Under the pieces are notes generated by a model. It was not told where the DNA came from. It saw only the letters and a program-made list of their open reading frames with translations, and did no database searches. Of a stretch of DNA of 64,000 nt, positions 17,825 to 24,166 are shown in pieces. The position numbers were made by a program, and so were the translations under genes. The DNA is taken from NCBI GenBank assembly GCA_965660445.1, contig CBFIAK010000001.1:416001-480000 (forward strand). Reading direction: 5' to 3'. The stretch comes from Patescibacteria group bacterium (GTDB lineage: Bacteria > Patescibacteriota > Gracilibacteria > UBA4473). The stretch's first letter is position 1. The number at the start of each line of letters is the position of its first letter.

Positions 17825-19591
17825 ATGAACGCAAAATCTCCTGTTATTGTCAAAGTATCCGGACCATTAGTGGTTGCGGAGAATATGCATACAGCCAAAA
17901 TGTACGAGGTAGTCCATGTAGGGGAAGAAAACCTTGTTGGTGAAGTTATTCGATTAGAAAACGGAATGGGATCCATTCAAGTATACGAAGAAACAGCTGG
18001 TATTGGACCAGGTGAACCAGTGAAACTTACGGGAGAAACAATGGTAGTTGAGCTTGGACCTGGACTTTTAGAGACTATTTATGATGGAGTGCAACGACCG
18101 TTGCAAATACTTGAAGAAAAAACAGGAGCATTCTTAGATCGAGGAGTGAGAGCTGATGGGCTTGATCGTGCTCGAAAATGGGATTTTGTGCCGGTTGTAA
18201 AGGTAGGGCAAACTGTAAGTGAGGGTGATGTGTTGGGAACGGTGCAAGAAACCACACTGATCAATCATAAAGTTATGGTGCCACTCGGTATAGAAAAAGC
18301 AAAAGTACTTCGTATTGAGTCTGGAAAATATAATGTAACGGAAACGATTGCTGTATTAGATGTACAAGGAGAACAACGAAATATAGAAATGAGACAGTTT
18401 TGTTCGATTCGACGTCCACGAAAAATTAAACAAAAACGACAACCAGACGAACTTTTAATGACAGGAGGGCGTTCTATTGATACGTTTTTCCCATTGGTGA
18501 AAGGAGGGGCGGGGTGTATTCCTGGACCTTTTGGAGCTGGAAAAACAGTGACACAACAAACTTTGGCAAAATATTGTGATGCACAGGTGATTGTGTATAT
18601 CGGATGTGGAGAACGAGGAAACGAAATGACAGAGGTTTTGAATGAGTTTCCACATTTGTTGGATCCAAACACAGGTGAGCCATTGATGAAACGAACCGTT
18701 ATGATTGCCAATACTTCAAATATGCCGGTTGCAGCGCGAGAAGCGTCGGTGTATACGGGAATTACTATTGCTGAATACTATCGAGATATGGGGTACGATG
18801 TAGCACTTATGGCAGATTCTACGTCTCGATGGGCAGAAGCTATGCGAGAAATGTCAGGACGGTTAGAAGAAATGCCGGGTGAGGAAGGGTATCCAGCATA
18901 TCTTGGGTCTCGAACAGCAGAATTTTATGAGCGAGCAGGGGCGGTAGATTGTTTAGGGGCTGATGATCGAAAAGGGTCATTAACCGTTATTGGAGCAGTT
19001 TCTCCTCCGGGAGGGGATTTGTCTGAACCAGTGACACAAAACACGCTTCGGGTCACAAAAACGTTTTGGGGGTTGGATTCAAAATTGGCATATCAACGGC
19101 ATTTTCCATCGATTAACTGGTTGAAAAGTTATTCTTTGTATTTGCCAAACTTAGAAAAATTCATGAAGGATAATGTAGCCGCTGATTACTGGGATGTGCG
19201 AACAATGGGATTATCATTATTGAATGAAGAAGCAAAGCTTGAAGAAATTGTGCGTCTTGTTGGTCCAGAGGCTTTATCCACAAAAGAAAAATTAGTGCTT
19301 TTAACAGCGAAATCGATTCGAGAAGATTTCTTATATCAAGACTCATTTGATAAAAATGATGCTTATACGCCAACAAAAAAACAGTATCAAATGTTAAAAA
19401 CAATTGTAGCTTTATACACAGAAGGATTAAAACTTGAAAATCGTGAAGATTTTGATTTCTCAAAACTAGAATCCCTTCCTTGCGTGCAGAAAGTAGCACG
19501 AGTAAAAGATTTAAGTGTTGGAGAAAATGATGATGTTTCTGCTTTTGAGGCTGTTCGTGCTGAGATTGCAAAAGAAATTGCCGGGTTATAA
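17825..19591 (+). CDS. ntpA: V/A-type ATP synthase catalytic subunit A
   Basis: IQVYEETAG, GPFGAGKT Walker A, YIGCGERGNEM, ANTSNMPVAAREAS, DSTSRWAEA, EMPGEEGYPAYL. Confidence 0.96.
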   Translation: MNAKSPVIVKVSGPLVVAENMHTAKMYEVVHVGEENLVGEVIRLENGMGSIQVYEETAGIGPGEPVKLTGETMVVELGPGLLETIYDGVQRPLQILEEKTGAFLDRGVRADGLDRARKWDFVPVVKVGQTVSEGDVLGTVQETTLINHKVMVPLGIEKAKVLRIESGKYNVTETIAVLDVQGEQRNIEMRQFCSIRRPRKIKQKRQPDELLMTGGRSIDTFFPLVKGGAGCIPGPFGAGKTVTQQTLAKYCDAQVIVYIGCGERGNEMTEVLNEFPHLLDPNTGEPLMKRTVMIANTSNMPVAAREASVYTGITIAEYYRDMGYDVALMADSTSRWAEAMREMSGRLEEMPGEEGYPAYLGSRTAEFYERAGAVDCLGADDRKGSLTVIGAVSPPGGDLSEPVTQNTLRVTKTFWGLDSKLAYQRHFPSINWLKSYSLYLPNLEKFMKDNVAADYWDVRTMGLSLLNEEAKLEEIVRLVGPEALSTKEKLVLLTAKSIREDFLYQDSFDKNDAYTPTKKQYQMLKTIVALYTEGLKLENREDFDFSKLESLPCVQKVARVKDLSVGENDDVSAFEAVRAEIAKEIAGL

Positions 19592-20754: not shown

Positions 20755-21786
20755 TTATGACATTTCTTGTATAAGCGCGAGTAAGACTTCGCAGAAATAA
20801 TCGATATCACTTTCTTGAATACCACTATGAAGTCCAATACGGATAGGGTATTGGTAAGCTGAGTCAGACTCGAATTTCCCAATAACAGGGTTGACTGATA
20901 AAAGATCGGAACTACACGCCGATCCGGTGGATACGCATATATGTTCTTCATCTGATAAGCGTGCCATAAGGTGAGACCCTCGAATATGTGGAAACGAGAC
21001 GCTTACGATTCCAGCTCCTTTTTCTTTTTCAGAATGAAGAATACGAGCTTGTGGAAAATTTTGAACAATAAAGTTGCTCAATTTTTGAGTGAGTTGTGTG
21101 AGTGTTTCTTGATGGGTTTTATCAATAAGGGTAAATGCCTGTGCCATACCAGCGATGAGTTGTGGGTTTTTGGTATGGGTATCACGCATAATGTCAGGGT
21201 AGAGTTCGGGTGAACGTGCATAGAGGATACCCACTGTTTTTGGTCCGTATATTTTATGGGCAGAGAATGATGCGAAATCAATTCCTGCGAGGTTCAGGTT
21301 TGTTTTTCCAAACGCTTGAACCCAGTCACTCAAGACAATACTGTGAGGATGGGTATTTTTTATTGTATCTGCTTCAAACAAAGCTCCTGTTTCGTTGTTC
21401 ATACGCATAAGGCTTATCATTCGTGCCGTTGGAGGAATTGATGATATATCAAATGGGTTAAACTGTTGTATTTCTGGAAAAAAATCTCGTATAGAGCTAT
21501 GTTCAGCCCATGAACAATAGAGTTCATTTGAGGAAAACCGTTTGTGAAACGCCCACAAAACTTTTCTATTGGCATCGGTTCCCCCATAAGTAGGGATAAG
21601 TTGTTGTGGAGCCACATTTAAAACATCGGCAATGGTTTGCAGTGATTGTTGAATAATTTCTTGGGCTTTATATCCAGCGACATGTTTTGAGTTGCTATTC
21701 CCAAACACACCATTGAGTTCGTCCATTCGTGCTTGCACATCAGGATGAATAGGGGTTGTTGATGCCGAATCAAGGTAGAGACTCAT
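20755..21786 (-). CDS. iscS: cysteine desulfurase (IscS/NifS class V PLP enzyme), compact
   Basis: YLDSASTTP, SAHKIYGPK (PLP Lys), STGSACSS catalytic Cys. Confidence 0.88.
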   Translation of the reverse strand: MSLYLDSASTTPIHPDVQARMDELNGVFGNSNSKHVAGYKAQEIIQQSLQTIADVLNVAPQQLIPTYGGTDANRKVLWAFHKRFSSNELYCSWAEHSSIRDFFPEIQQFNPFDISSIPPTARMISLMRMNNETGALFEADTIKNTHPHSIVLSDWVQAFGKTNLNLAGIDFASFSAHKIYGPKTVGILYARSPELYPDIMRDTHTKNPQLIAGMAQAFTLIDKTHQETLTQLTQKLSNFIVQNFPQARILHSEKEKGAGIVSVSFPHIRGSHLMARLSDEEHICVSTGSACSSDLLSVNPVIGKFESDSAYQYPIRIGLHSGIQESDIDYFCEVLLALIQEMS

Positions 21787-21827: not shown

Positions 21828-22454
21828 TCAGTGTTTTTGTTTTTGAGCTAGTACAACAAAATTTTTGTTGTTTACGCAGTGGGACTCAAGACATTGAAAC
21901 CCATTTTTTTGGGTCAGATTTCGTAGTTCTCTATCACTTACTCGTCTATATGTTCGAGGATATTTTTGAGTACCAAATGGGACGTTCCAGTTTTTAAAGC
22001 GACCTCGAAGGATATTGGGCCAGAAATGTTTTTTTGGTATTTTCCAAGTGGTAAGAAAAAGGATTCCATTCGGTTTGAGCACTCGAAAACATTCGGAGAG
22101 AAACTGGTTTTGTTCATGGCGTGACAAAAGATGATGGAATGAAGCAATACCAATAATCATATCAAATGTATCGGACCCAAAAACGAGAGGTTCTTTCATA
22201 TCCTGAAGAAAAAAGTGATCATGCGGGTATTGAGACCTTGCTATATCTAGAAACTCTTGTGAGTTATCGAACCCAAAATAACACCCTTCTTGGTGACGAT
22301 GTTCAGACAAAAATGATCGCAATCGTCCATTTCCGCATCCCGCATCGAGAATCCGAGCATGAGGGGATATAAATGGGGCGCACATTTCAAACTCTTCCCA
22401 ATGAAAATGGCGAGTACGAGAAAAATCGTGAGCAAAAGAGTCGTATTGTGCCAT
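21828..22454 (-). CDS. class I SAM-dependent methyltransferase (Trm9/ALKBH8-MT-like)
   Basis: YDSFAHDFSRTR..W, LDAGCGNGR, IASFHHL, RVLKPNG. Confidence 0.85.
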   Translation of the reverse strand: MAQYDSFAHDFSRTRHFHWEEFEMCAPFISPHARILDAGCGNGRLRSFLSEHRHQEGCYFGFDNSQEFLDIARSQYPHDHFFLQDMKEPLVFGSDTFDMIIGIASFHHLLSRHEQNQFLSECFRVLKPNGILFLTTWKIPKKHFWPNILRGRFKNWNVPFGTQKYPRTYRRVSDRELRNLTQKNGFQCLESHCVNNKNFVVLAQKQKH

Positions 22455-22539
22455 GCCTTATAAAAGGGATACAAAGGGATGATACTCGTATTTGTAAGGA
22501 GTGCAAATGAAGGATATTTAGGGGAAAACTATTTTTTAT

Positions 22540-22568
22540 TTGCAAAAAATTTTTTTCTGTGGTACAAT
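22540..22568 (+). promoter_or_regulatory. sigma70 promoter with extended -10, facing a non-coding region
   Basis: TTGCAA-17 nt-TACAAT preceded by TGn; AT-rich upstream; no credible + strand CDS follows. Confidence 0.7.
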
Positions 22569-22867
22569 ATCTAGATTTGTTCATTGAAAGTTCGAAAAAA
22601 ACGGAGAGTGTGGAGAAGAGGAGTCCTCTCTTCCCATAAACTATATAATTTTTATTTTCCTATTTTATTATATTGGGCATAAGAGTCGGTATTGCTCTTT
22701 TCCACTCTCTCCGCTTTGCGATGTCGTTCTAGCGCCTATAGACTACGCTTAGAATGCACCACAAAACGCGAGAGGCACGATTTTCAAAAAGACGACTTGT
22801 TCTTCGAAAGAAAAGAAGCCGCCTTCTCGAAAACCGTTTTGAGGTATTTTACCAAAATACAGTCTGT

Positions 22868-22896
22868 ACAATACTTATTTTATAATAACTTGTCAA
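22868..22896 (-). promoter_or_regulatory. sigma70 promoter
   Basis: Minus strand TTGACA-17 nt-TATTGT. Confidence 0.6.
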
Positions 22897-23005
22897 ATAA
22901 GATTCTACACCCAAAGACTCTGATCGGTAACGCAGGAATCCCGATTTATCGGGAAGAGAAGATTACCCAAGCAAGGCAAGAGAACAGATTCCTAGTCAGA
23001 ATCAT

Positions 23006-23076
23006 AAAAGACCGATACTTTATTTTACTCGATAATTATGAGTTTTCAAAATAAAGGACATTATCGGTCTTTTTTT
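23006..23076. terminator. long hairpin/terminator downstream of the AI-2E gene
   Basis: aaaagaccgata...tatcggtcttttttt with inner ctttatttt/aaaataaag stem. Confidence 0.7.
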
Positions 23077-24166
23077 ATTTCCCGAGAATATGTTGGTAAT
23101 CAGTTTTGTAGATATGGAGGAATGCGATAGTAAGGGTGAGAATAATCGGTCCAAGGATAATTCCTTTGAGTCCAAACATTAAAGCTCCTCCTAAAATCAT
23201 AATCATAACAGCGAGTGGATGCAGTGTTGCTTTTGATCCAATAATGTATGGTTTGAGTACATTATCAATATTGGCAACGAGGAGCACAGCCCAAAGGATA
23301 AGAAACACTGCTGATACAATTTCTCCGGATATGAGGAAGTAGACACTTAAAGGAATCCATATAATGGCAGATCCTACATAAGGAATGGGGGAAAGGAGTG
23401 CTCCGAGAGCAGCCCAAAAGATACTGTTTTGGATACCTAAAATACCAAATCCAATTCCAAGGACTATTCCTTGTGCTAGAGCACCGCCGAACATACCAAA
23501 GACAATAGAGTTCATTGCATTTTCTATTCGTACAAATAATGCATTTTTATGGGACATATCAAGAGGGATGAGGGTTTTGATATATTTGATGAAGTTCTGT
23601 CCATCACGAATAAAATAAAAAAGAGCGACGAGGAATATAATCAAATGGATAATAACGATGGATATTTGTTTGATGATATTGGCGGTATGTTCGATTAAAA
23701 ATGCGCTTATAGAACGAACGATATCGGTAGCAGTGTTGGCTATATTTTCAACGGAGAACGGGTTATTTTTTAAGAAACTTTCTGCCCATGCGTGAAGATA
23801 GGGGAATCGGTCAAAGACACTGATATCAAATGATGGTTCGGCATCGAGGTTTTGCAAGGCAATACGCATATGATCGTAGGCGCTATAGGCTTGACCAATA
23901 ATTGAGAGAATAAAAAACGTAAGAGGAATAAGGAAGAGTATTATGATGAGCATAAATGTCACGAACGACGCCACTGAATTAGAAAACTTGATCCATTGCT
24001 GAATAATTTTGTGGAGTGGATATATAGACACCGCTGTCATTCCAGCAGCAAAAAGCGTTGCGAGAAATGGCAAAGCGAAAAAGAATGAGAGAACGACAAA
24101 AAAAAGTGCTGCTCCGAGGAGGAAATTTTCTTGAAACCGATAATTCTGGAATTTTATAGGTGGCAT
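23075..24166 (-). CDS. AI-2E family transporter
   Basis: YPLH, FYFIRDG, SPIPYVGSAIIWIP, IDNVLKPYIIG, FGLKGIILGP. Confidence 0.93.
   Translation of the reverse strand: MPPIKFQNYRFQENFLLGAALFFVVLSFFFALPFLATLFAAGMTAVSIYPLHKIIQQWIKFSNSVASFVTFMLIIILFLIPLTFFILSIIGQAYSAYDHMRIALQNLDAEPSFDISVFDRFPYLHAWAESFLKNNPFSVENIANTATDIVRSISAFLIEHTANIIKQISIVIIHLIIFLVALFYFIRDGQNFIKYIKTLIPLDMSHKNALFVRIENAMNSIVFGMFGGALAQGIVLGIGFGILGIQNSIFWAALGALLSPIPYVGSAIIWIPLSVYFLISGEIVSAVFLILWAVLLVANIDNVLKPYIIGSKATLHPLAVMIMILGGALMFGLKGIILGPIILTLTIAFLHIYKTDYQHILGK

Follow-up and report, generated by a model that had tools for sequence, protein, structure and literature searches.

A lineage-specific structured RNA locus

We analysed a window of 64,000 nucleotides (nt) from a Patescibacteria group bacterium of the class Gracilibacteria (positions 416,001 to 480,000 of contig CBFIAK010000001.1, assembly GCA_965660445.1). 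Between the genes of an AI-2E-family transporter and of an S-adenosylmethionine (SAM) methyltransferase, this window has a gap of 620 nt (22455-23074). The gap very probably holds a stand-alone gene locus for a conserved, structured noncoding RNA (ncRNA) that is specific to this lineage, and not an attenuator or another cis-regulatory leader. The locus is conserved across the family of the host, its helices show compensatory substitutions, its gene neighbourhood differs between genomes, and it carries promoter and terminator motifs. The host genome (G000) has 0.99 Mb in 5 contigs, is rated 100% complete, and belongs to a phylum with hundreds of families and genomes of 0.4-2 Mb. We call the host's family f1, and the two other families of the class that carry homologues f8 and f19.

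The whole conserved unit is about 500 nt long (window 22540-23078). A preliminary description of this DNA had flagged the 3' two-thirds of the locus, either as a small RNA (sRNA) of about 270 nt or as a leader that controls the genes downstream. All the features that it listed are present on the minus strand at the coordinates it had assigned to them. The sRNA suggestion is essentially right for the host genome, where a conserved promoter (P1) precedes a covarying four-helix fold and a hairpin with seven U (U7) ends near 22595. The order of the parts is shared by all f1 homologues. Read in the sense of the minus strand, they are a long terminator-like hairpin (T0), a small hairpin (U2), an upstream domain (U domain), P1, a leader with the motif UUUUGGU, the four-helix fold, the motif AAAGAAC, and a second promoter (P2), which lies on the opposite strand and faces inward.

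Compensatory substitutions define a branched fold

The segment 22590-22870 of the minus strand folds with a minimum free energy (MFE) of -93.9 kcal/mol, against -63.3 +/- 4.9 kcal/mol for 200 dinucleotide shuffles (z -6.24); none of the 200 folded as well. The corresponding values for the plus strand are -80.4 and a z of -4.64. We aligned 17 f1 sequences (alignment A1) and tested them against a structure of 50 base pairs. This alignment omits two genomes with long insertions (G014 and G442), one with a truncated contig (G001), and the paralogue of the host genome; alignment A2 omits G437, and the second copy of G015, identical to the first, was counted once. In A1, 87.3% of the cells are paired, compared with 44-55% when the partners are slid, and 24 of the 50 pairs have changed on both sides. 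These values were reached by 0 of 500 shuffles. A larger alignment of 37 f1 and f8 sequences was fitted to a covariance model and is hence biased toward the structure; it has 90.6% of the cells paired over 31 pairs (35-56% when slid) and double changes at 23 of these pairs. Compensatory substitutions go beyond the controls, and the element is a conserved structured ncRNA.

The fold supported by covariation is branched: a short helix, P-a, encloses H1 and is followed by H2 and H3. P-a joins CAAAA (22841-22837) to UUUUG (22766-22762); it changes from CG to UA in 3 and from AU to GC in 2 of the 17 sequences, and all 5 of its pairs are double-changed in the 37-sequence alignment. H1 (22836-22778, minus strand) is the 22-bp helix rich in G-U pairs that had been described before. 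It is conserved, with a core GGCGGCU/AGUCGUC, two fixed G-U pairs, and compensatory changes, and it is confined to the type-1 copies of f1, being missing in the paralogue of the host genome (locus L012) and in the f8 and f19 homologues. H2 (22761-22719, minus strand) consists of a base, UGGUGC/G-CAUCG, and a variable distal stem. Among the 37 sequences, the distal pairs have 4-16 double changes each, and at the base 28 sequences show G-U and 8 show A-U. H3 (22712-22603) is a long hairpin closed by GGAGAG/CUCUCC that can be drawn on either strand. Double changes affect 8 of its 15 pairs in A1, and the closing G-C is replaced by A-U in G022 and in f8. The base of H3 is the 19-nt stem of the preliminary description, which is confirmed by compensatory changes.

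An invariant core, CAUCGCAAAGCGGAGAG (22707-22723, minus strand), spans the 3' strand of H2, the junction, and the 5' strand of H3. It is identical in 16 of the 17 rows of A1, save for one G/A position. After H3, the motif CUCUCCAC is conserved and, further on, AAAGAAC or AAAGAUC.

Some of the structures proposed earlier hold in part. The second long helix stands in its inner portion, which is H2, and falls in its outer half (CUCUC/GAGAG and GUUUUG/CAAAGC). That half has a pairing potential of 84.9% in 17 sequences with 0 compensatory changes, and 8 of its 11 pairs depart by broken cells only. The GUUUUG arm covaries with the 5' CAAAA of P-a instead, and those changes break its pairing with the invariant CAAAGC. 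A possible alternative conformer of the f1 RNA through CUCUC (22774-22770) gets no positive support from the alignments, and the motif is absent from the sister family f8. The 5' leader hairpin GUAUUUUGGUAAAAUAC (22844-22860, minus strand) is present in the two copies of the host genome only; elsewhere in f1 the other genera keep its UUUUGGU motif alone. The seven U directly after H3 are real (22601-22595, minus strand) and likely mark the 3' end of a minus-strand RNA in the host genome, but a comparable run follows the H3 stem in only about 3-4 of 19 homologues (the window, G013, G022, and, as a borderline case, G019, by visual reading of the sequences). Since the U-run is rarely kept, H3 appears to be primarily a structural helix, with a terminator role local to the host genome.

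Distribution across families and genomic context

A blastn search found the element in 9 of 24 genomes of the same family and in 0 of 16 from other families of the class. A covariance model of 139 positions (R1) found it in 35 of 43 f1 genomes, representing 21 of 25 genera, and gave weak matches in 5 of 15 f8 and 2 of 7 f19 genomes; it had no match in the other families of the class that were sampled (151 genomes in the scan). We regard the weak f8 and f19 matches as real homologues because they share GGUGCA-hairpin-CGACAUCGCAGAGCAGAGAG, the complementary motif of the U domain (see below), H3, a boxA-like motif, and P2. These homologues have neither H1 nor P1, so that the U domain and the core are contiguous in them. 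A degenerate core pattern, with at most 2 mismatches, occurs in 28 of 42 f1 and 47 of 64 f8 genomes and is scattered elsewhere (85 of 401 genomes overall), and the reversed pattern, used as a control, gave about 9 hits. The lone match in a further phylum-level family (genome G349) falls within a coding region of GlmS-like sequence and was taken as chance.

Genomes carry 1-3 copies of the element, and many have 2-3. The second copy of the host genome is diverged (C1:265413-265800, plus strand; locus L012/L043). Its U domain is about 80% identical, it has the same 5' hairpin and the core CAUUGCAAAGCGGGGAG, and it keeps H3 and P2; like the f8 copies, it is without H1 and a recognisable P1. A search of the host genome for targets of the core returned just these two copies and weak matches with 3-4 mismatches, and no exact copy of the core turned up in viral contigs. 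Several f8 genomes (e.g., G400, G361, G577, G665, and G673) have 2-3 cores each, often one of the CAUCGCAG type and one of the CAUUGCAG type, which suggests old paralogous subtypes of the RNA.

In the window, the element is flanked upstream by the transporter gene (23075-24166, minus strand) and downstream by the co-oriented methyltransferase gene (21828-22454, minus strand), after which comes the gene of a class-V aminotransferase (NifS/IscS-like; 20755-21786, minus strand). None of 11 other loci has AI-2E, methyltransferase, NifS-like, or TrxB neighbours. The element lies between rpsA (upstream) and ruvB (downstream) in two loci, has ruvB downstream in a third, and has LigT or Lgt convergent downstream in others. 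A crude caller of open reading frames (ORFs) was applied to 35 loci. It called an upstream ORF in all but 3 of them, with 22 co-oriented and 10 divergent, and a downstream ORF in all but 1, with 18 co-oriented and 16 convergent. Because both the flanking genes and their orientations vary, the element behaves as an independent gene, and neither as a leader nor as a 3' untranslated region.

Expression signals and the upstream domain

P1 (22896-22868, minus strand) is a promoter of the sigma-70 type, TTGACA-17-TATTGT, with 10 of 12 matches and an expected start at about 22861. Most f1 homologues keep both hexamers (-35 and -10), with a spacer that varies. On the other side of the fold, P2 (22539-22568, plus strand; TTTGCA-18-(TG)TACAAT) is convergent with P1 and has an expected start at about 22575. 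The arrangement TTGACA/TTGCAA-16/17-TAnnAT is kept in f1, as TTGACA-17-TAAGAT in most members, and, by visual reading, also in f8 and f19. The mention of an antisense RNA in the preliminary description was apt, given this conserved convergent promoter.

Downstream of P2 lies a boxA-like motif, GUUCAUUGAAAG (22579-22590, plus strand), whose aligned counterpart is GUUCUUUnA(A/C)A or GAUCUUUCACA in f1 and GAUCCUUCACA in f8. The AAAGAAC seen after H3 on the minus strand is this same GUUCUUUnA(A/C)A when read on the plus strand. It resembles the leader of the 23S rRNA in the host genome, in which TTGACA-17-TAGAAT is followed by CGUUCUUUGAUAAC. Judged by the common boxA consensus, P2 is followed by a promoter-proximal boxA-like motif that is conserved in position, and the region reads as a putative leader of the rrn type.

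T0 (23003-23073, both strands) is a long hairpin with an A-run on one side and a U-run on the other. It has the shape of a bidirectional terminator and comes directly after the stop codon of the AI-2E gene. Its plus-strand side has a seven-U tail, and its position and apical motif, AGAACUC..GAGU, are kept in the f1 homologues. In G436 and G444, the upstream gene has a separate terminator of its own ahead of T0. At one locus of a sister family (L091), the T0-equivalent hairpin abuts the start of a divergent gene and hence is not the terminator of that gene. A promoter inside T0 (23049-23022), from which a sense RNA with the U domain might have started, was rejected because it is not conserved in homologues (visual reading).

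U2 (22987-23003, minus strand) is the small hairpin GAUUCUGACUAGGAAUC, in place of which homologues have hairpins of other sequences. The U domain proper (22905-22985, minus strand; also called U3) reads CUCU..GCCUUGCU..GGUAA-(hairpin)-GCGUUACC..UCAGAG. Its GCCUUGCU is nearly invariant, and the GGUAA/UUACC helix is altered on both sides in several genera (visual reading). The motif CUCU..GCCUUGC of this domain is complementary to GCA(A/G)AGC(G/A)GAGAG in the core. Over 24 f8 sequences, the corresponding helix has 82.6% of its cells paired, compared with 31-56% when slid, and includes one change from C-G to U-A, in 3 genomes. The complementarity may be taken as a lead for a long-range helix, not as proof of one.

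Searches for known RNAs and proteins

We searched Rfam 15 (4227 models). At the gathering thresholds, the window matched only with 5 tRNAs. With E values up to 10, the best match in 22300-23200 was SIB_RNA, at 23.7 bits for a gathering score of 56, and nothing recurred over the element across 18 f1 and 6 f8 loci. The exception was ncr1175, at 34-37 bits (gathering score 60), which matched 2 loci in their T0 region. The titles, abstract openings, and selected passages of the literature that were searched gave no account of this RNA. As it has neither an Rfam match nor a published description in that material, the RNA family is new.

Four housekeeping RNAs were considered and rejected. The models of the signal recognition particle (SRP) RNA, RF00169 and RF01854, are unmatched in the host genome, and RF00169 matches in 0 of 43 f1 genomes. 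The SRP54-type GTPase (PF00448) and the M domain (PF02978) have no match in the host genome either, where a motif scan was also negative; across the class, PF00448 gave only partial matches of the size of a P-loop, in 8 of 41 genomes. Judging from these searches, the host genome has no SRP, and an SRP RNA would lack a partner because there is no Ffh or FtsY. The two SRP subunits are reported as absent in Vampirococcus and many other members of the candidate phyla radiation (PMC8080830). RNase P RNA is encoded elsewhere in the host genome, with its signature motifs (C2:32783-33097, plus strand; locus L013), and so is tmRNA (C1:176141-176558; 105 bits). The RNase P RNA scores only 36.5 bits, where the gathering score is 100; CACAGAAA, GGUGAAA, and AACAGAACUCGGCUUA are present in it, and the usual GAGGAAAGUCC stretch is not. 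The model of 6S RNA (RF00013) is unmatched in the host genome. The 6S RNA forms a single long irregular hairpin, or rod, with a large central bubble, which the branched fold does not fit.

A protein-coding origin was rejected as well. The plus strand has an ORF for 120 aa (22692-23054) with no Pfam match. L003 has an ORF of the same length in the same position, but the two are not similar, and the ORF of the window is probably spurious. The ORFs are not kept in most homologues, and the substitutions follow base-pairing and not codon periodicity.

Roles of the two strands

We propose that transcription from P1 in the host genome would begin near 22861 and give a minus-strand RNA about 266 nt long. 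This RNA would fold into P-a, H1, H2, and H3 and would end at H3 and its U7, at about 22595. The purine-rich invariant strand CAUCGCAAAGCGGAGAG between H2 and H3 may be its working surface, to which a protein or another RNA would bind, and the RNA may act in trans. On the plus strand, P2 and the boxA-like antitermination motif would yield an antisense RNA of about 500 nt that spans the entire gene and stops at T0 (~23075). The two would form a sense/antisense pair in which the plus-strand RNA may control the minus-strand RNA or be processed together with it. We give this assignment of roles about an even chance of being correct.

Helix composition and fold stability bear on the choice of strand. 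We used fixed G-U pairs in covarying helices as strand evidence because the composition of a strand can bias the number of G-U pairs in its MFE fold. Read on the minus strand, H1 and H2 together have five pairs fixed as G-U and none as A-C, with 101 G-U cells versus 42 A-C cells. The 5' domain is more stable in the minus sense in 16 of 18 homologues (mean -11.9 kcal/mol), and its RNAalifold consensus is -13.3 on the minus strand versus -6.6 on the plus strand. The U domain folds better in the minus sense in 18 of 19 homologues. In single-sequence folds, 5 of 6 f8 units favour the minus sense, and the strand preference of their H3 is split 3 versus 3.

Several observations weigh against a minus-strand RNA as the main product. 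Of 17 f1 homologues, 14 have an H3 that is more stable when read on the plus strand, where its RNAalifold value is -17.6 versus -0.5 on the minus strand, and the consensus of the 24 f8 sequences folds at -34.5 in the antisense direction versus -20.4 in the sense direction. P2, the boxA-like motif, and the far-end hairpin with its U-run are the only expression signals common to f1, f8, and f19; P1 and H1 are restricted to the type-1 copies of f1. No sense promoter was found upstream of the contiguous RNA of U domain and core in f8 or in the paralogue of the host genome, in neither of which P1 is seen. The U7 tail after H3 is not conserved. The helix between the U domain and the core has a single compensatory pair and a conserved C-A mismatch on the sense strand. 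In about 10 of 18 f1 homologues (visual reading), an extra hairpin with a U-run lies some 25-60 nt after P1 and before the fold (loci L003, L004, L028-L033, and L041); it is absent from the window. This hairpin could be the terminator of a short P1 transcript, a bidirectional terminator, or merely a variable hairpin, and it speaks against the proposed minus-strand RNA if P1 transcripts stop early.

Alternative explanations

Some of these points would agree with a reversal of roles, in which the plus-strand RNA of about 500 nt (P2, boxA-type leader, T0) is the primary and ancestral product, and the minus-strand RNA, with its f1-specific H1, is a later cis-antisense regulator or a by-product. 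All the conserved blocks lie between P2 with its boxA-like motif at one end and the far-end terminator at the other. The far-end hairpin of L091, at the start of a divergent gene, and the separate terminators of the upstream genes in G436 and G444 point the same way, as do the plus-strand preferences of H3 and of the f8 consensus. In f8, a hairpin precedes the boxA-like motif, just as boxB precedes boxA in rRNA leaders, and the f1 helix between U domain and core is fully paired, with G-U, on the plus strand, with an A-C mismatch on the minus strand (visual reading). The difficulty lies in the five fixed G-U pairs that H1 and H2 have on the minus strand, which would be A-C mismatches on the plus strand, and in the alternation of G-U and A-U at the base of H2, which is the pattern expected of a minus-strand helix. 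The better minus-strand folding of the U and 5' domains and of five of the six f8 units is also at odds with it. We consider this reversal a serious possibility, if not a likely one. Somewhat less probable is a combined scheme of two convergent, completely overlapping RNAs, each with a structure of its own, with selection acting on H1, H2, and U3 on the minus strand and on H3 on the plus strand; its plus-strand RNA, of about 500 nt, would be expressed in the manner of an rRNA, from a strong promoter and with a boxB/boxA leader, and the pair would make up a new housekeeping ribonucleoprotein or RNA-RNA system peculiar to an ultra-small lineage that has lost SRP.

Another explanation, put forward in the preliminary description, is an attenuator or riboswitch-like leader, possibly under antisense control, of the methyltransferase and NifS-like genes, with the second helix as antiterminator and H3 plus U7 as terminator. 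The element of the host genome does lie upstream of the methyltransferase gene and in the same orientation, H3 is followed by seven U, and GGAGAG can pair either with CUCUC (22774-22770) or with CUCUCC (22608-22603). However, none of 11 other loci shows synteny with those genes, 16 of the 34 ORFs called downstream of the element are convergent with it, and no Rfam riboswitch or leader family matches. The U-run is seldom kept, the alternative arm has no compensatory changes while its GUUUUG covaries with another partner, and the CUCUC junction motif is missing in f8. This proposal, which has next to no probability left, is already largely refuted by the comparative data. A very divergent 6S, SRP, or RNase P RNA missed by the Rfam models would account for the near-universal presence in f1, for the 1-3 copies per genome, and for the strong promoters, and it draws on the fact that 6S and SRP RNA are undetected anywhere in the host genome. 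It is nonetheless highly unlikely, as the genome has no Ffh or FtsY for an SRP RNA and encodes RNase P RNA and tmRNA elsewhere; the fold has four branched helices in place of the 6S rod, and no weak match appeared at E up to 10 on the window or on the f1 and f8 loci. Finally, the gap could hide the gene of a small protein, or else a toxin-antitoxin pair of type I, in keeping with the 120-aa ORF, further short ORFs on both strands, the convergent overlapping transcription signals, and the SIB antitoxin RNA as the best near-match in Rfam. The SIB score is far under its threshold, though, and the lack of conservation of the ORFs and a substitution pattern that tracks pairing leave this explanation with scarcely any credibility.

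Relation to known systems

The locus, taken as a stand-alone RNA gene, resembles the OLE, GOLLD, ROOL, HEARO, and raiA motif RNAs, which also have several covarying helices around invariant single-stranded blocks, stand free between unrelated genes, and are restricted to certain lineages. It differs from them in that it has no match to their Rfam models, in its convergent promoter with a boxA-like leader, and in its hosts, small-genome bacteria that probably belong to the candidate phyla radiation. GOLLD and ROOL are often linked to prophages, whereas the core of this locus has no exact match in viral contigs.

The plus-strand side is similar to the leaders of rRNA operons (boxB, boxA, Nus): downstream of the near-consensus P2, a hairpin and a motif of the GUUCUUUnA(A/C)A type come within about 10-100 nt. 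Here, in contrast, no rRNA follows P2, and the predicted transcript of about 500 nt would end at T0; the likeness is one of sequence motifs.

Cis-antisense pairs made from convergent promoters, such as RNA I/RNA II of plasmids or CopA/CopT, offer another parallel, as two convergent promoters would here give fully complementary, highly structured transcripts. Unlike those pairs, this locus is chromosomal, has no replication or toxin gene, and both partners apparently have conserved structure. The Rfam matches to CopA and SIB are weak and far below threshold. Attenuators with intrinsic terminators and riboswitch platforms share with the host copy the long GC-closed hairpin with U7 and the purine strand with two possible pyrimidine partners, but at this locus the U-run and the downstream gene are not conserved, and the alternative pairing shows no covariation.

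Tiny genomes keep little noncoding DNA. Even so, the gap, of about 600 nt, ranks with the best-conserved sequences in two families, and its 17-19-nt core is nearly invariant across about 75 genomes. A new class of structured RNA in such stripped-down cells likely has a basic function. The combination of rRNA-like expression signals with structural signals on the opposite strand is unusual for known bacterial RNA genes. The locus offers a concrete target for the RNA biology of a little-known lineage and, for annotation, corrects a tempting misreading as a riboswitch or attenuator.

Two observations concern other genes of the host. Its 16S rRNA gene is unlinked from the 23S-5S genes (C1, at about 142.35-143.8 kb and 270.3-273.5 kb, respectively), and each of the two units has a separate promoter, TTGACA-17-TAnAAT. 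The window also contains the gene of the catalytic subunit of a V/A-type ATPase (17825-19591, plus strand; Pfam ATP-synt_ab and ATP-synt_VA_C), which is notable for a bacterial genome of about 1 Mb.

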